Origin: Solirubrobacteraceae bacterium
Lineage (GTDB): Bacteria; Actinomycetota; Thermoleophilia; Solirubrobacterales; Solirubrobacteraceae
NCBI GenBank assembly: GCA_036266805.1
Contig: DATAXK010000025.1
Span: forward strand, 54,497-118,496
DNA: 64,000 bases
Direction of reading: 5' to 3'
Part shown: positions 51,035 to 64,000 of the stretch, piece by piece
Position numbering within the stretch: position 1 is the first letter of the stretch
How the letters are laid out: each line of letters opens with the position of its first letter
Made by a program: the position numbers and the translations under genes
Notes under the pieces: model-generated
The model's input: only the letters and a program-made list of their open reading frames with translations
Database searches by the model: none
Told to the model about the DNA's origin: nothing

Positions 51035-52066
51035 GTGACACAAGCATTCTGCCGCCACAACCGTTTCGTCCAGCGTTGCCCGATCTGTCGCGACACCATA
51101 CCCGGACAGAAGCTCAAGCCCAAGCGGCAAGGTGGCGGCAGCGCTCGGACCAACGGTGGGATGGGGGCGGCGTCGCGTGGCGGGGCGAGCGCCGTGCGCG
51201 CAACCGGGCGCACCTACGCGCGTCGCACCCAGGAAGTGCGGGTGCATCGCGAGGCGCGCTCCGAGGACGACGGCTATCGCTGTGAGCTTGTTCCGGGACT
51301 TCACTCATCCGAGGACGCGCTGCGGCTGGTGCGGGAGATCGGGTTCGCAAGCGGGAGACTGCTCACGCTCACCGCCGCGCCGCCCGACCTATACGCGGAG
51401 GCGCGCGATTGCGGGGACGTCGAGCAGACGACCTGGATGTGCTTCCTGGCCGCCTATCTGTCGCCCTTGCAAGGCGCACAGCCCTTTGTCGGCATCCGCC
51501 AGGCACTGCTCTCGAGTTGGGCATCGGGCACGATCCCCGACATCGCGGAGGTTCCGCTCGGACCGCGCAGCTCCCACGACCCTGCCCGCGGTGGTGAGAC
51601 CCTGGTCGCGTACCGACGCTTCGCCGAGAACGCCGGCTCGCAGCAGCTGGCCTTTACGGGCGAGCCCGAGTGGACTCCGCAGCGACGCTTCGCGCGGCTG
51701 TTCGAGCGCCTGGCGCTACCCGGCTTCGGACGCATGGGCCGCTACGACCTGCTGGTCACGCTGGGGCGCCTCGGCCTCTACGAGCTGCGCGCCGACTCGC
51801 TGCAGCTCGTCACACGCTCCGCGCAGGCATCCGATCTCACGCCGCAGGCCGTCAAGCGCGTCTTCGCGATCGGCGATCCGCTGATCATCGAACGGCGCGC
51901 TCAAGTGCTCGCGGAGGCCGCCGCGATCCCGATCGAAGCGCTCGATCTGGCGCTTTACAACTGGAGCGTGGTGGACCCGACGCGAGAACGCGCGACGCTC
52001 GGCTTCGCGCTCGACATGAGCGATGAGCACGGGCTCGAGCAAGCTGAAGCGGCGCTCGAAGTCTGA
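51035..52066 (+). CDS. Hypothetical protein, probably alpha-glutamyl/putrescinyl-thymine pyrophosphorylase clade-3-like, with N-terminal Zn-binding motif
   Basis: FCRHNRFVQRCPIC; TWMCFLAAY, FGRMGRYDLLVTLGRLGL, ALDLALYNW resemble recalled aGPT-PPlase3 motifs; TAGCGT 7 nt before GTG. Confidence 0.55.
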   Translation: MTQAFCRHNRFVQRCPICRDTIPGQKLKPKRQGGGSARTNGGMGAASRGGASAVRATGRTYARRTQEVRVHREARSEDDGYRCELVPGLHSSEDALRLVREIGFASGRLLTLTAAPPDLYAEARDCGDVEQTTWMCFLAAYLSPLQGAQPFVGIRQALLSSWASGTIPDIAEVPLGPRSSHDPARGGETLVAYRRFAENAGSQQLAFTGEPEWTPQRRFARLFERLALPGFGRMGRYDLLVTLGRLGLYELRADSLQLVTRSAQASDLTPQAVKRVFAIGDPLIIERRAQVLAEAAAIPIEALDLALYNWSVVDPTRERATLGFALDMSDEHGLEQAEAALEV

Positions 52067-52106
52067 TCGAAAAGTTACGTCCACACCGGCCCCTAAAGTG
52101 CCGGTT

Positions 52107-52562
52107 ATGCCGCTCTGCTTCATCGAGCCACACGACGCGATACGCGTAATCGCGGATTCCGTCGGCCGCGAGGCCCGCCGGCAGCTCGTCGGAGAGGTCG
52201 TGCGCGCATGGGTCGACGATCTCCCCGACCAGGAGCTCACGTTCCACTACGAGCGCGCGATCGCCGGCTTGGATCAGGACGACCTACACCTACTGGCCGC
52301 CTGGCACGCCTCGCTCGAGGTCGGCCATCCCGTGCCCAACACCGACTTCCTCGTCGGCGTCTTTCCGAGCCTCGGCGAGAATCGCCGCGAGGCGCTGAAG
52401 ATCGCCGCCGGCTTCAAAGGCGAGGAAGCCTTCCAAGCCGGTGTCGCCGAGGAACAGGCGCTCGACACCGTGTTGCCGCACCTGTCCCGCGCCCGCGCCA
52501 TCGAGCTGGCCGAGGAGTGCATCCAGCTGTATCAGTGGGACCGCCTCGGCTCCTACAACTAG
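52107..52562 (+). CDS. Hypothetical helical protein
   Basis: 151 aa; TAAAGT 7 nt before ATG 52107. Confidence 0.7.
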   Translation: MPLCFIEPHDAIRVIADSVGREARRQLVGEVVRAWVDDLPDQELTFHYERAIAGLDQDDLHLLAAWHASLEVGHPVPNTDFLVGVFPSLGENRREALKIAAGFKGEEAFQAGVAEEQALDTVLPHLSRARAIELAEECIQLYQWDRLGSYN

Positions 52563-52663
52563 GACGTCCTATGGGCGGCGCGATACGGCGTCCTCGGACC
52601 CTTGTGTGCAGAGCACACTGCGGGTCCTGCGTCCTTGTCTCGCTTGCCCCTAGAACGTCCTAG
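52559..52663. repeat. Hairpin repeat element copy A (MITE/REP-like)
   Basis: Ends CTAGGACGT / ACGTCCTAG; 78-bp core shared with copy B. Confidence 0.85.
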
Positions 52664-52680
52664 TCGCTAGAGTCATGGAT

Positions 52681-52992
52681 ATGCATGAGGAAACGACGGT
52701 CACCGTCGATGACGTGATGGACGCCTTGTCCAACGTGATCGACCCCGAGCTTGGCCTGGACTTCGTGGAGCTGGGGTTGATCTACGGCGTGGAGGTCTCA
52801 GGGGGGGACGTGCAGGTCACGTTCACGCTCACGACACCCGGCTGCCCGATCGGGCCTCAGGTGACCGAGCAGATCGAAGAGTTCGTGGGCGAGCTCGACG
52901 GCGTCGCCACCGTCGAATCGGAGATGGTCTTCACGCCCCCGTGGTCGCCTGAGAAGATGTCGGAGGACGCAAAGTTCGCCCTGGGCTACTAG
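52681..52992 (+). CDS. sufT: Metal-sulfur cluster assembly factor (SufT/DUF59 family)
   Basis: VIDPELGLDFVELGLIY, TLTTPGCP, VFTPPWSPEKMS; TAGAGT 7 nt before ATG 52681. Confidence 0.9.
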   Translation: MHEETTVTVDDVMDALSNVIDPELGLDFVELGLIYGVEVSGGDVQVTFTLTTPGCPIGPQVTEQIEEFVGELDGVATVESEMVFTPPWSPEKMSEDAKFALGY

Positions 52993-53092
52993 CGCCGTTG
53001 GGCGGCGCGATACTGCGTCCTCAGTCGCTCATGTGCTAGCGCACACTACGCTCCTTGCGTCCTTGTCTCGCTTGCCCAACGGCGCTAGTAGC
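52985..53092. repeat. Hairpin repeat element copy B (MITE/REP-like)
   Basis: Perfect 19-bp terminal IR GCTACTAGCGCCGTTGGGC / GCCCAACGGCGCTAGTAGC; core about 80% identical to copy A. Confidence 0.85.
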
Positions 53093-54547
53093 GGCCCGTC
53101 GGGGTGCAGTCTTCTTGCTGTTTTCGCGGGCCAGCTCGACCAGTTCCGCCAGCTCCGCTTTGATGCTCTCGCCGAGCGAGTCGATGTCCGGCAGTGCGTC
53201 GAAGTCGCCCAGCAGGCCGAAGTTCATCTCGCCCGCGTAGGACATGATTGCCACCGCGAGCGCGTGGTTTTCGGGCAGAAAGGCCACCGGGAACACGCGC
53301 TCCATGCGCCGCCCGAGCACATACAGCGGGAACTGGGGCCCTGGCACGTTCGTCACGATCAGGTTGAACAGGCGCGTGGAGAAGTTCAGGCGCGAGGCCT
53401 GCGCCAGGATCGTGGGCGGCGCGAAGTTCTGCGCGCCGGCGATCACCTCCGCGCCGAGGGCCTGCTTTGACTCCTTCAGGCCGTCCATCGCGTGGCTGAC
53501 GAAGCGCAGGCGCTGCAGCGGGTCGGCGATGTACACGGGCAAGGGGCCCCGCATCACGACGATCCGGTTGCCGCCCTCGTGACGCTCGCCCACGGTGCGC
53601 ACCGAGACCGGCACGAGCGCTCTCATCTCCTTGCCCTCCGTGCGCACCCCGCGCTCAATCAAGAACGAGCGCAGAGCACCCGTCACGACGGCCAGGACCA
53701 CGTCGTTGACCGTGCCACCAAAGGCGTTCTTGACGAGCTTGAAGTCATCCAGCTGTGCCGCGATCCCGACAAAGCGCCGGTGCGGCCCGATCTCTACGTT
53801 CAAAGGTGTGTCGGGCGCCGGGTTCAGTCCGGCCCAAACGATCTCGCCGACGCCCTCCGCGGCCTCGCGCGCTCGCTCGAGCGTGCGCTCGGGATGGGTG
53901 AGCGCATGTACCGCCCCGCTCACCATCTCCACGCCCGCGCGTACCGCGCTGCGTACGCCCACCGCGACGAGCTCGGTCGCGTCCGGTTCCGGCTTCGGTT
54001 TCCACGCTCTGCCCGAATGACGCAAGGGCTCTGGCTCCGGTGCGAGGTCGAACAGGACCGTCGCGAGATCGACGCCCGCGATCCCGTCGATCAGCGAATG
54101 ATGGGTCTTGGATATCAGCGCGAAGCGGTCGCGGGCAGGGGCGCCATGGCCGTCCATCCTTGGATCGAGGCCCTCGATCAGCCACATCTCCCATAGGGGC
54201 TTGGAGCGGTCGAGCGCCTGCGAGAAGATGCGCGCCGTCAGGTTGCGCAACTGCTCCCAACTGCCCGGGGCCGGCAGCGCCGTGTGGCGCACGTGGAACT
54301 CGAGGTTGAAGCCCGGGTCGTCGACCCACACCGGACGGCCGCTGTCGAGCGCCGTATAGGCCAGCTTGTGGCGGTAGCGAGGCACGAGATGCAGACGCTT
54401 GCGGATCTGCTCGAGGAACTCCTCCATCGCCGGCGGCGGGCCCTCCAGCAACGTGAGCCCGCCCACGTGCATGTGCGAGTTGCGCCCCTCCTGGTGCAGG
54501 AAGGAGGCGTCCACCGCTGTGAGCCTGTCGAGGTGTTGCTGCGCCAT
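53036..54547 (-). CDS. Wax ester synthase/diacylglycerol acyltransferase (WS/DGAT)
   Basis: DASFL...MHVGG, KTHHSLIDG (HHxxxDG), GTVNDVVL, TNVPGPQ; TACTCT 6 nt before ATG 54547. Confidence 0.93.
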   Translation of the reverse strand: MAQQHLDRLTAVDASFLHQEGRNSHMHVGGLTLLEGPPPAMEEFLEQIRKRLHLVPRYRHKLAYTALDSGRPVWVDDPGFNLEFHVRHTALPAPGSWEQLRNLTARIFSQALDRSKPLWEMWLIEGLDPRMDGHGAPARDRFALISKTHHSLIDGIAGVDLATVLFDLAPEPEPLRHSGRAWKPKPEPDATELVAVGVRSAVRAGVEMVSGAVHALTHPERTLERAREAAEGVGEIVWAGLNPAPDTPLNVEIGPHRRFVGIAAQLDDFKLVKNAFGGTVNDVVLAVVTGALRSFLIERGVRTEGKEMRALVPVSVRTVGERHEGGNRIVVMRGPLPVYIADPLQRLRFVSHAMDGLKESKQALGAEVIAGAQNFAPPTILAQASRLNFSTRLFNLIVTNVPGPQFPLYVLGRRMERVFPVAFLPENHALAVAIMSYAGEMNFGLLGDFDALPDIDSLGESIKAELAELVELARENSKKTAPRRAATSAVGQARQGRKERSVR

Positions 54548-54639
54548 TAGCCAAGAGTACCCATCGCGTGCGCGCGGACGGTCTCGGACGCAGACCATCT
54601 GCGAAGCGTGGCCCGCTGGCGCCTCTACAATGGGATGCG

Positions 54640-60801: not shown

Positions 60802-62202
60802 TCAGCCTATGGAGCCGACCATCTCCAACTGAATCAAGCGGTTGAGCTCGACCGCGTACTCCATCGGCAGCTCCTTCGTCACCGGCTCGATGAAGCCGTT
60901 GACGATCATCGCCGCGGCCTCGTCCTCGGTGAAGCCGCGCGAGCCCATATAGAAGAGCTGGTCGTCAGAGATGCGCCCCACCGTTGCCTCGTGCGCGACC
61001 GCCACGTTGGGGTTCTGAATCTGAATGTCAGGCCAAGTGTCAGAGCGCGATTCGCCGTCCATCATCAGGCCGTCGCACTGCACGCGGGCCTTTGAGCCAG
61101 CGCTGTTGTGGCCCATCTTGACGAGGCCCCTGTAGCCCATGATCCCGCCGTCCTTGGAGATCGACTTGGCGAGAATATTCGAGGTGGTGTTGGGGGCCAG
61201 GTGCACGACCTTGGCGCCCGTGTCCTTGTGCACGCCCTTGCCGGCGACGCCCACGTTGAGATGGTCGGCGCGGGCGCCCTCGCCCATCAGGTAGGAGCCG
61301 GGGTAGAGCATCACGTACTTGGCGCCCATCGAGCCACCGACCCACTCGACTGTGCCCTCGGCGTCGACGACGGCGCGCTTGGTGTTGAGGTTGTAGACGT
61401 CCTTGGACCAGTTCTGCACAGTCGTGTAACGGGCCTTGGCGCCCTCGTGCACGAAGATCTCAACGACGGCGGAGTGCATCGAGTTGACGCTGTATGTCTG
61501 GGCGGTGCAACCCTCGATGTAGTTCACGTCCGAGCCCTCGTCGGCGATGATCAAGGTGTGCTCGAAGGTACCCTCGCCGGCGCCCTCCATGCGGAAGTAG
61601 GCCTGCAATGGCAGGTCCACCTTCACGCCCTTGGGCACGTACAGGAACGACCCGCCCGACCACACCGCGCCATGTAGCGCCGAGAACTTGTTGTCCTGTG
61701 GGGGCACGCACTTGTTCATAAAATACTTCTGCACGAGATCGGGATACTCGGTGATCGCGGTGTCCATCGAGCAGAACAGGATCCCGAGCTTGGCGTACTC
61801 TTCCTTCAGGCCCTCATACACGGGCTCCTGGCGCCACACGCCCACCACGCCGGCGAGGTGCTCGCGCTCGGCCTGGGGGATGCCGAGGTCCTCATAGGTC
61901 TGCTTCATCTCCTCGGGCACGTCGTCCCAGCTTTTGAAGCGCCCAGCGGTGGGGGGGGAGTAGAGCACCAGCTCGTCCAGGTTCAGGCCGCTGAGGTCCG
62001 GGCCCCACGTCGGCACCGGCTTGCGTTCGTAGATCTCAAGCGACTTGACACGCTTCTCGGCCATCCAGTCGGGCTCGCCCTTGACCTTGGAGAGCTCCCG
62101 CACCACCTCGCGCGAGATGCCTTTGCGCGCCAGCAGTTGCCCCTGCTCGTCCTCGACGATCGGGCTGGGCTTTGCGATCTTCGTCTGGTCTAGCGTCGCC
62201 AT
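60802..62202 (-). CDS. sufB: Fe-S cluster assembly scaffold SufB (divergent)
   Basis: SALHGAVWSGGSF, YIEGCT, TVQNWS..VYN, QCDGL, HEATVG, EYAVELNRLI. Confidence 0.9.
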   Translation of the reverse strand: MATLDQTKIAKPSPIVEDEQGQLLARKGISREVVRELSKVKGEPDWMAEKRVKSLEIYERKPVPTWGPDLSGLNLDELVLYSPPTAGRFKSWDDVPEEMKQTYEDLGIPQAEREHLAGVVGVWRQEPVYEGLKEEYAKLGILFCSMDTAITEYPDLVQKYFMNKCVPPQDNKFSALHGAVWSGGSFLYVPKGVKVDLPLQAYFRMEGAGEGTFEHTLIIADEGSDVNYIEGCTAQTYSVNSMHSAVVEIFVHEGAKARYTTVQNWSKDVYNLNTKRAVVDAEGTVEWVGGSMGAKYVMLYPGSYLMGEGARADHLNVGVAGKGVHKDTGAKVVHLAPNTTSNILAKSISKDGGIMGYRGLVKMGHNSAGSKARVQCDGLMMDGESRSDTWPDIQIQNPNVAVAHEATVGRISDDQLFYMGSRGFTEDEAAAMIVNGFIEPVTKELPMEYAVELNRLIQLEMVGSIG

Positions 62203-62849: not shown

Positions 62850-64000
62850 CTAGAGGCCGAACACCTTTATGCCCGCGATCAACGCGTCGATCAGGGCGTC
62901 CACGTCGCTTGGTTCGTTGTAGACGCCCACACTGGCGCGCGCGGTCGCTCCGACGCCCAGGCAGCGCATCAGCGGTTGCGCGCAGTGGTGCCCGGCGCGA
63001 ATGCACACGCCCCCGCGGTTGGCCAGCTCGGCGATGTCGTGGGCGTGCATGCCCTCGATCGTGAACGACACGAGGCCGCCGCGATTCACGGCCTCGGGCG
63101 GCCCGACGAAGCGCAGGCCCGGCACCTCTCCCAGACGATCGAGCATGTATCCGGTCAGCTCGCGCTCGTGCGCGCGGACCTGCTCCATCCCGAGCGCCGA
63201 CAGATAGTCGACGGCCGCCCCCAGCCCCACTGCCTCGGCGATCGGTGGCGTGCCCGCCTCGAACTTGTAGGGCAGCTCGTTCCAGGTGGCGTCGTCGAAG
63301 TCCACCGAGGCGATCATGTCGCCGCCGGTCAGGAACGGCTGCATCTCATCCAGGATCTCCGCGCGACCGTGCAACACGCCGATGCCGGTCGGCCCAAGCG
63401 CCTTGTGGCCGGTCCACGCGTAGAAGTCGGCGCCGAGCGCGTTGAGGTCCACCGGCATGTGCGGCACCGCCTGGGCGCCATCCACCAACGAAGTCGCGCC
63501 CGCGGCGCGGATGCGGGCGGTCATGTCCGCGACAGGCACGATCGTGCCGAGCACGTTCGAGACATGCGTGAACGCCACCAGCTTCACGTCGCCCCTCGCC
63601 AGCTCCCGGTCGAGCTGCTCGAGCGATAGCTCTCCACGCTCGTCCACCTCCAGGTAGCGCAGCTCGGCGCCGCGCTCGCGGCACAGCACCTGCCAGGGCA
63701 CGATGTTCGCGTGGTGCTCCATCTGGGTGATGAGCACCGCGTCGCCGGGTCCCACGTTGGCGCGGCCCCACGCGTAGGCAACGAGGTTGATTGCCTCGGT
63801 CACGTTCTTGGTGAAGATCGTCGTCTTCGGCTCCCAGTCGACGAATGCGGCGACCTTCTTGCGTGCGCCGTCGTAGGCGGCGTCGGCCTCCTGGGCGAGC
63901 GCGTACACGCCGCGGTGCACGTTCGCGTTGCGCTCGCGGTAGTAGGCGTTGATCGCCTCGATGACGGCCGTCGGCTTCTGCGAGGTGGCGCCCGAGTCGA
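62850..64000 (-). CDS. sufS: Cysteine desulfurase SufS, 5' end outside the window
   Basis: DSGATSQKP, NVHRG, MEHHAN, GHKALGP, RAGHHCAQPL (group II). Confidence 0.95.
   Translation of the reverse strand, partial: DSGATSQKPTAVIEAINAYYRERNANVHRGVYALAQEADAAYDGARKKVAAFVDWEPKTTIFTKNVTEAINLVAYAWGRANVGPGDAVLITQMEHHANIVPWQVLCRERGAELRYLEVDERGELSLEQLDRELARGDVKLVAFTHVSNVLGTIVPVADMTARIRAAGATSLVDGAQAVPHMPVDLNALGADFYAWTGHKALGPTGIGVLHGRAEILDEMQPFLTGGDMIASVDFDDATWNELPYKFEAGTPPIAEAVGLGAAVDYLSALGMEQVRAHERELTGYMLDRLGEVPGLRFVGPPEAVNRGGLVSFTIEGMHAHDIAELANRGGVCIRAGHHCAQPLMRCLGVGATARASVGVYNEPSDVDALIDALIAGIKVFGL

Follow-up and report, generated by a model that had tools for sequence, protein, structure and literature searches.

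The small gene sufT lies between two similar hairpin sequences, here called copies A and B, in a 64,000-nt stretch of DNA from a Solirubrobacteraceae bacterium (GenBank assembly GCA_036266805.1, contig DATAXK010000025.1, positions 54,497 to 118,496; the whole stretch is hereafter called the window). The locus raises the question of what these hairpins are and how their arms come to be complementary within each copy and different between copies. The analysis reveals that A and B belong to a family of hairpins that are dispersed through the genome, are polymorphically inserted and lost, lie on stop codons in the orientation of the gene, have, in part of the family, right arms derived from the target, and lack the usual enzymes. 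On balance, these hairpins are probably members of a dispersed family of non-autonomous insertion elements of 90 to 160 nt, which are placed at stop codons and whose stems would be templated by the target through fold-back synthesis.

Copies A and B, 427 nt apart around sufT, each fold as one long imperfect hairpin, with folding energies of -61.9 and -62.6 kcal/mol and z scores of -6.8 and -8.1, respectively, and none of 200 shuffled sequences was as stable. Their cores (52572-52609/52610-52649 in A and 52999-53036/53038-53077 in B) are on the same strand and share 84 to 85% identity, in line with the roughly 80% first estimated, and both exact strings reported to be shared, TGGGCGGCGCGATAC and TGCGTCCTTGTCTCGCTTGCCC, are present. 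The features of the two copies are as follows.

52558-52664, + strand: copy A, the whole hairpin element (outer stem, conserved core, and apical GTGTGC/GCACAC hairpin); 110 bits with Infernal model R1 (C12:107053-107162)
52985-53092, + strand: copy B, the whole hairpin element, with an outer stem perfect at 19/19; 110 bits with Infernal model R1 (C12:107480-107590)
52560-52562, + strand: TAG stop of the open reading frame (ORF) 52023-52562, paired within the left arm of copy A
52990-52992, + strand: TAG stop of sufT, within the left arm of copy B; the preceding 5 nt of sufT coding sequence are also paired
52588-52595, + strand: conserved 5'-arm motif GCGTCCTC of copy A, in invariant or near-invariant columns of a 25-copy alignment and retained in distant relatives
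52628-52637, + strand: conserved 3'-arm motif TGCGTCCTTG of copy A, a direct repeat of the 5'-arm motif, from the same alignment and likewise retained in distant relatives
53015-53022, + strand: conserved 5'-arm motif GCGTCCTC of copy B, from the 25-copy alignment
53056-53065, + strand: conserved 3'-arm motif TGCGTCCTTG of copy B, from the 25-copy alignment

The outer arms differ between the two copies. The original prediction gave each copy perfectly complementary arms, of 9 bp in A and 19 bp in B. That is correct for B, in which 52985-53003 and 53074-53092 are complementary at 19 of 19 positions; in A, 52558-52576 and 52646-52664 match imperfectly, at 17 of 19, and the longest perfect run is 10 bp. 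The left arm does supply the TAG stop of the upstream gene in both copies, as had been noticed.

The element is not confined to the sufT locus. The assembly (3.17 Mb, 65.7% G+C, 45 contigs, 91% complete) contains 48 copies of 57 to 159 nt on 18 contigs, as found by three rounds of nhmmer over the whole of it; Infernal found 46. With covariance model R1, the element was detected in 22 of 24 other genomes of the genus, at 1 to 59 copies each, and in 35 of 41 relatives, and a covariance model search found it in 29 of 301 sampled Actinomycetota, other classes included. A scan of Rfam 15 with E values up to 10 gave only noise (the best score on the element was 15.7 bits, for MIR840, against a threshold of 150), BLASTN of the element against plasmid and phage collections gave no match, and nothing relevant was found in the literature on Solirubrobacter palindromic repeats or on actinobacterial MITEs (miniature inverted-repeat transposable elements) at stop codons. 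This repeat family of soil actinobacteria has apparently been undescribed until now.

The joined flanks of 20 other element sites of this genome (G000) were used as queries against the genomes of the same genus. Other species lack the element at most of these sites, and it has a patchy distribution even within the eight closest genomes; in G072, the nearest of them, 6 of 10 sites are empty. Only this genome and its two nearest relatives have the pilT|pilC site filled, and at least seven others have it empty, which indicates that the element was inserted there. At the infB site, genome G054 has an independent copy with a different stem, and G050 retains only the perfect palindrome CTGAGACGG|CCGTCTCAG where its relatives hold a full copy. 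Gene ends are altered in the process: the element's TGA replaces a native TAA at C17_59731, TAG is replaced by TGA at the element at C6_39259 and C32_22211, and the last codons LQV* become LDVR* at C34_97715. Orthologous copies whose flanks are 90 to 95% identical differ between species in their inner modules. Judged from these sequence comparisons, the insertions and losses at orthologous sites are real and recent. The predicted dispersed, non-autonomous repeat, with a left end carrying the upstream stop, is thereby borne out by 48 copies and many empty orthologous sites. The findings named in advance as contrary to it were not made: there are more than two copies, empty sites exist, and no identity with a catalogued repeat family emerged from the Rfam, plasmid, and phage searches.

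The sufT locus shows the same turnover. The sufT protein, used as the query, retrieved 80 loci, nearly all from metagenome-assembled genomes (MAGs) of uncultured Solirubrobacterales/Solirubrobacteraceae (Thermoleophilia, Actinomycetota). The element lies directly upstream of sufT in 16 of these loci and directly downstream in 8; sufT is flanked by two copies, the arrangement of the window, in 2 loci (L048 and L054) and by none in more than 50, and all 29 matches are on the sufT strand. Orthologues of copy A (L054, L056, L048, and L053) have its unusual GGACCC/GGGTCC inner stem in common with it. Those of copy B (L044-46, L048, and L051) share its outer stem, with paired changes between species such as CTAG/CTAG in the window versus CTGA/CCAG in L044. 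Truncated remnants persist at L052, L084, and L109, and L043 has a coreless footprint, GCTACTGACGCCGCCAGTAGC. The neighbors of sufT are unchanged across the 80 species, whether zero, one, or two copies flank it, and the SufT C terminus DAKFALGY* is identical in species with and without the element. This constancy tells against the mini composite cassette once envisaged. Two similar copies around one small gene would also suit a local duplication or a composite transposon mobilizing sufT, but this explanation, whose probability is negligible, is refuted by the 46 other copies elsewhere in the genome, the separate histories of the orthologues of A and of B, and the existence of species with one copy or neither.

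Comparison of filled and empty sites also bears on the origin of the arms. At six sites, the right arm is the reverse complement of adjacent pre-existing sequence and is absent from the empty state, as in hairpins made by template switching. The inverted copies span 6 to 12 nt of the native gene end.

C32_22211: native left flank CTGCTGCGCCGC (coding); inverted copy right of the core TCGGCGCAGCAG, 11/12; the core starts at the stop
C27_170244: native ATTAGCGGCCCG (pre-existing); inverted copy CGGGCCGCTAAT, 12/12; further new sequence consists of 7 nt of filler and a 9-nt direct repeat
C32_128112: native CCGCATGAG; inverted copy CTCATGCGG; the empty site is GCATGAGATGAGC; then follow 15 nt with a ribosome-binding site and the regenerated GTG start of pilC
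C22_22921: native CCAGTAG; inverted copy CTACTGG
C17_29789: native TGAGCC; inverted copy GGCTCA; an 18-nt direct duplication keeps both overlapping genes
infB site, independent copy of G054: native TGAGCTG; inverted copy CAGCTCA

Genome-wide, pairing reaches at least 5 nt into coding sequence in 5 copies, against about 0.2 expected. The right junctions contain filler of 7 to 31 nt and direct duplications of 0, 3, 8, 9, or 18 nt. The inspection of empty sites for a target duplication thus yielded variable lengths with filler and no fixed duplication. Copy-specific terminal inverted repeats with preserved pairing had been proposed for A and B, and the pairing is real; ordinary compensatory evolution alone does not account for it, given that at least six right arms are inverted native left flanks. 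Fold-back copying would give each copy a "terminal inverted repeat" of its own, whose arms change together.

An alternative is a classical MITE whose terminal inverted repeats are fixed and which depends on a DDE transposase acting in trans (for example, an IS5-like enzyme preferring CTAG/YTAR or TNA), CTAG being its target duplication. Such a MITE would likewise be small, non-coding, multicopy, and polymorphic among relatives, as this element is. Many copies have common CTAG..CTAG or CTGAG..CTCAG ends and an outer-stem consensus, C9_11551 has TAG, and C34_157738 has CCCGCTAG, on either side, and TAG is found at 12 of 17 empty sites, often as TAGAC, compared with 31% of stops genome-wide. However, the direct duplications (none, 3, 8, 9, or 18 nt, with filler) do not have the fixed length expected of such an element, the TGA/TCA ends are inverted rather than direct, several copies have ends that consist of native gene sequence, and palindromic ends could not set the observed orientation. 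No longer element with these ends occurs in this genome: no end pair flanks a longer unit in the 91% complete assembly, the search for a parent being confined to this genome, and a search for solo ends found one truncated left end (C28:29661). A MITE of this kind is improbable. The arrangement of a target segment, the core, and the reverse complement of that segment, T-core-rc(T), accompanied by filler and direct duplications that vary, is not what a cut-and-paste transposase would produce and fits fold-back synthesis or template switching.

The position of the element is as distinctive as its arms. A sense ORF with high G+C at third codon positions stops at model columns -5 to +6 in 32 copies and at column 13 in 3, that is, in 35 of the 48, and most of the remaining 13 likewise have TAG or TGA at that position. 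In 36 of 48 copies, a sense stop is found 13 nt or less from the left end, while only 5 right ends are that near to an antisense gene end. In a register search around the stop codon, it was fully paired in 21 of 33 copies. The host genes are unrelated housekeeping genes, including secA, pdxS, atpG, infB, rpsO, tsf, ftsZ, pyk, pilT, and nadA. In several cases, the element separates two genes of the same operon (after atpG, tsf, pilT, infB, and rpsO), a setting that would be expected to exclude an efficient terminator. TAG and TGA are used equally at the copies (17 versus 18), against genome-wide shares of 31% and 60%, so CTAG does not hold as a target rule. TAGAC or TGAGA occurs at several empty sites. 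A target motif of this sort (TAGAC, TGAGA, or CTAG) was rejected as the cause of the stop-codon bias, since real stops would make up too small a share under it, at most about 25% of the tolerated sites, an approximate figure from a crude gene map covering 61% of the genome. The sequence context after stop codons showed no genome-wide consensus that would account for the GAC-rich outer stems. As a separate observation, CTAG is strongly avoided throughout the genome: base composition predicts about 10,000 sites, and about 2,270 are present (observed/expected ratio, about 0.23).

The same placement, together with the conservation of the core, would be expected of a cis-acting structured RNA in 3' untranslated regions (3' UTRs) or between cistrons, whose loops bind a conserved, perhaps dimeric, protein or RNA, whose stems covary under RNA-level selection, and whose stop-codon position is needed (for example, to touch the ribosome at termination or to regulate how the message decays), with its spread being secondary. 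Aiming at stop codons has no account in a non-RNA mechanism, and the sense orientation of 36 of 48 copies and of all 29 sufT-locus matches accords with an RNA, as do very stable folds and strong covariation. The 25-copy alignment (A1) forms a single hairpin of 41 pairs, with 84.6% of cells paired versus 30 to 47% when the partners are slid by 1 to 3 columns; 30 of the 41 pairs vary on both sides, and the covariation score is 0.47 versus about 0.11. The invariant parts are the direct-repeat motifs GCGTCCTC (5' arm) and TGCGTCCTTG (3' arm), which are opposed across the stem, and a lower stem with two G.T pairs and a bulged C. Loop motifs, the tandem G.U, and the bulge are conserved from Solirubrobacterales to other classes. 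Distant copies retain CGUCCUC / CUGCGUCCU(U/A)G or CGUUCUC / CUGCGGCCUUG. These copies have one further stem of 15 to 18 bp, which again begins with (C/T)TAG and is set off by 12-nt internal loops, making a nested hairpin of about 190 nt.

Nevertheless, the variable stems contain 27 G.U and 39 A.C combinations, without the excess of G.U typical of functional RNAs. With G.U no commoner than A.C, the complementarity looks like copied DNA rather than the result of wobble-tolerant RNA selection, and the strand-specific positions are the four invariant G.T positions only. In addition, the arms are demonstrably produced by DNA copying, orthologous sites, including those behind essential genes, gain and lose the element rapidly, inner modules are exchanged between close species, and Rfam has no matching family. 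A structured RNA as the primary nature of the element is therefore rather unlikely.

Enzymes that could move such hairpins were sought in the same genomes. Profile PF01797, for Y1 transposases including the REP-associated tyrosine transposase (RAYT), had no match in this genome or in 37 of 41 relatives, although 35 of the 41 carry the element, and the positive control matched in 6 known genomes; the cognate RAYT or transposase that had been suggested was accordingly not recovered. No integron integrase (TIGR02249) scored above the cutoff in 41 genomes (best, 82 bits versus 265). Reverse transcriptase (PF00078) is missing from this genome, and its occurrence elsewhere is uncorrelated with the element. 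These results bear on a repetitive extragenic palindromic (REP) or REPIN family served by RAYT, and on an integron in which the hairpins would be attC sites and sufT a gene cassette. The position of the palindromes, extragenic and at the ends of genes, recalls the former, and a short ORF between two same-strand hairpins resembles the latter. The unit, at 90 to 160 nt and with CTAG, CTGAG, or variable ends, is nonetheless not a short palindrome of 20 to 40 nt with a GTAG-type head. The 25-copy consensus has no RYYYAAC/GTTRRRY boxes (GTTGGGC/GCCCAAC is found in copy B only, in the wrong order), the copies are dispersed singly behind housekeeping genes, and sufT is fixed in place in 80 species. 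Both systems are very improbable; for these genomes they are refuted, short of a Y1 or IntI enzyme too divergent for the profiles to detect.

The mechanism favored here, target-templated insertion, may be envisaged as follows. The transferable unit would be the conserved core of about 80 nt, comprising the asymmetric motifs GCGUCCUC and UGCGUCCUUG, a stem with tandem G.T pairs and a bulged C, and the apical GTGYGC hairpin. It would be captured at a break or stalled fork without a dedicated transposase and would land on or directly after a stop codon in the orientation of the gene, often with a TGA or TAG that is new to the gene. Next, the outer stem, about 12 bp in length, would be made or remade locally, the 6 to 12 nt to the left of the core (the gene end and stop) being copied in inverted form to its right. 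The process that best accounts for such a copy is DNA synthesis by fold-back or intra-strand template switching, and the right junction would be closed untidily, leaving filler of 7 to 31 nt and direct duplications of 3 to 18 nt. Once in place, the element would be cotranscribed as a 3'-UTR or intercistronic hairpin and might shield the upstream message from 3' decay rather than terminate transcription efficiently; an mRNA-protecting role like that of REP, ERIC, or BOX sequences is plausible. Template switching during replication makes reverse-complement copies and RNA hairpins, and both creates and repairs hairpins (PMC8794818).

Several observations weigh against this mechanism. The nucleotide-precise aiming at true stops in one orientation is unaccounted for by any DNA motif. 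Strand-specific selection, on RNA or single-stranded DNA, is suggested by the four invariant G.T positions and by the asymmetric loop motifs kept across classes, and it lies outside the model; the conserved loops argue that one strand, in either form, is recognized by something. Many copies have a common outer-stem consensus (CTAGGACG.. and CTGAGACGG..) that was brought along with the element, for example at C17_59731 and C34_97715, so that local fold-back copying applies to part of the family only. Some 4-nt cases (CTAG and CTGA/TCAG) could equally reflect target preference. Mobility is read from comparative presence and absence only, with no enzyme or donor intermediate found, and all genomes compared are MAGs, in which repeat assembly may distort copy numbers.

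A more specific version, speculative and on the unlikely side, would account for the placement by transposase-independent insertion at the point where translation stops. The hairpin core would be captured there, perhaps on the sense strand exposed after ribosomes leave the message, and its 3' end would prime fold-back synthesis on the gene end. Each insertion would thus write its own terminal inverted repeat from the target and could stack further stem layers, the nested 190-nt relatives being older layers. If true, a process of this kind would add a new route by which bacterial repeats spread and 3'-end hairpins arise.

The element can be compared with several known repeats. ERIC or intergenic repeat unit sequences, BOX, and Correia/NEMIS are transcribed, intergenic, MITE-like repeats of enterobacteria, pneumococci, and Neisseria, respectively, and are thought to alter mRNA stability. 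Like them, the element is an imperfect palindrome of 100 to 150 nt, non-coding, and present in tens to hundreds of copies in intergenic or 3' regions, including operons, that are presumably transcribed; it has modular inner inserts (compare the boxB repeats and the internal insertions of ERIC), and its copy number varies among related species. It differs in having no sequence relation to them, a left end on the stop codon in one orientation, no fixed TA-type duplication, an outer stem built partly from the target, and uncultured Actinomycetota as carriers. REPs are 20 to 40 nt long with a conserved GTAG-type head and an accompanying RAYT gene; they stabilize upstream mRNA and can affect translation when within about 15 nt of the stop. 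Although the element is, like REPs and bacterial interspersed mosaic elements (BIMEs), an extragenic palindrome just after genes, it is about 100 nt long with conserved asymmetric loops and has no Y1 transposase. Mycobacterial interspersed repetitive units (MIRUs) are tandem direct repeats of 40 to 100 bp with small ORFs for translational coupling. They resemble the element in being actinobacterial intergenic repeats within operons, in one orientation to transcription and overlapping the upstream stop codon; the element, however, is a long hairpin and not a tandem direct repeat, and we know of no target-derived inverted copy in MIRUs. Quasi-palindrome correction is a related template-switch process that repairs hairpins. 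A parallel to the T-core-rc(T) layout is the template-switch mutation described by Mönttinen and Löytynoja (PMC8794818), in which a stretch beside a hairpin is swapped in one step for the reverse complement of the opposite arm or flank, giving perfect stems and apparent "compensatory" changes; those mutations act in resident sequence, whereas here a dispersed repeat is inserted at new sites.

Small hairpin repeats such as REP, ERIC, BOX, and Correia shape mRNA stability and genome plasticity, and the present family offers unusually clean triplets of filled, empty, and footprint sites across many related genomes. To our knowledge, the mode of movement of most small hairpin repeats has not been established. 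Neither near nucleotide-precise, single-orientation placement at stop codons nor terminal inverted repeats written from the target are known from those families. If the mechanism is confirmed, it would connect the origin and dispersal of a repeat family with template switching at replication, which has been proposed to generate RNA hairpins, and it would caution that "compensatory" stem changes may be mutational rather than selected. Annotators would also gain a marker of altered gene ends, since stops are replaced and the C-terminal tails of sufT's neighbors and other genes are rewritten.

The length of the copies varies with their inner modules. Short copies are about 90 to 105 nt, and long copies hold extra modules of three kinds: one to three TGCCTGTGCCCCGAAGGGGTAC mini-hairpins, a G-rich GGGTGGGTGGGC... 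block in place of the 3' loop, and a nested second palindrome, CCGATCGGAGATC...GATCTCCGATCGG. The G-rich block, GGGTGGGTGGGC(A/C)TTTCGA.., replaces the 3' loop motif at C27:142247, C45:20057, C9:25528, and C34:97715 and in L056, L048, and L133, and it might form a G-quadruplex; among orthologous copies in close species, it is present in some and missing in others. The nested palindrome, CCGATCGGAGATC(N5-25)GATCTCCGATCGG, is a recurrent insertion at one point in the family, directly 3' of GCGTCCT of the 5' loop. It was found in this genome at C6:35682-35730, C6:127983, C32:22178-22210, C9:30353, C18:65592, and C36:3314, and in several species at L044, L054, L109, L132, L133, L142, L146, and L187, and it looks like a mini-element aiming at the hairpin element. 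Two tandem copies lie behind secA (C17:63724-63930), the second being 5' truncated and beginning 25 nt after the first. The empty sites L134-L136 and L173, which correspond to the C9:11551 site, have a small hairpin of their own, CATCGCGC(TTG)GCGCGATG, 13 nt after the stop; where the element was gained, this hairpin is broken up, as though displaced by the new one.

The genes adjoining the two copies in the window are as follows.

52675-52992, + strand: sufT (FeS_assembly_P / DUF59; PF01883, E = 1e-23), a bystander and not cargo
52023-52562, + strand: upstream ORF of 179 amino acids with no Pfam match, whose stop is within copy A; the orthologous C terminus ...LGSYN* is kept at empty sites
53036-54598, - strand: convergent WS/DGAT gene, whose open frame now ends within copy B; 53036-53092 is antisense to the element

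As the original prediction stated, sufT is distant from the other suf genes: SufB/D (60805-62202) and a SufS-like gene (62853-63920) are on the opposite strand about 8 kb away. The last 18 or so residues of the WS/DGAT protein (..AVGQARQGRKERSVR*) are antisense element sequence (53036-53092, - strand). In nearer species without the element at this point, the WS/DGAT frame extends 62 nt into sufT antisense, and in distant species without it, the WS/DGAT stop overlaps the sufT stop by 4 nt. Upstream of sufT, the hexamer TAGAGT (window 52668-52681) lies 7 nt before a second ATG at 52681, and most of the 80 species have TAGACT 6 to 7 nt before the start. This hexamer looks like the -10 box of a leaderless sufT mRNA, so the start of sufT is probably 52681 rather than 52675. 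At the closest empty sites, the TAG of the upstream gene forms part of the TAGAGT/TAGACT hexamer. The overlapping gene pair 51035-52066 and 52023-52562 is conserved upstream of sufT, and the product of 51035-52066 has weak Pfam matches to aGPT-Pplase3 (E = 1.5e-6) and ADDT (E = 2.4e-4), which we take to be families linked to DNA base hypermodification.

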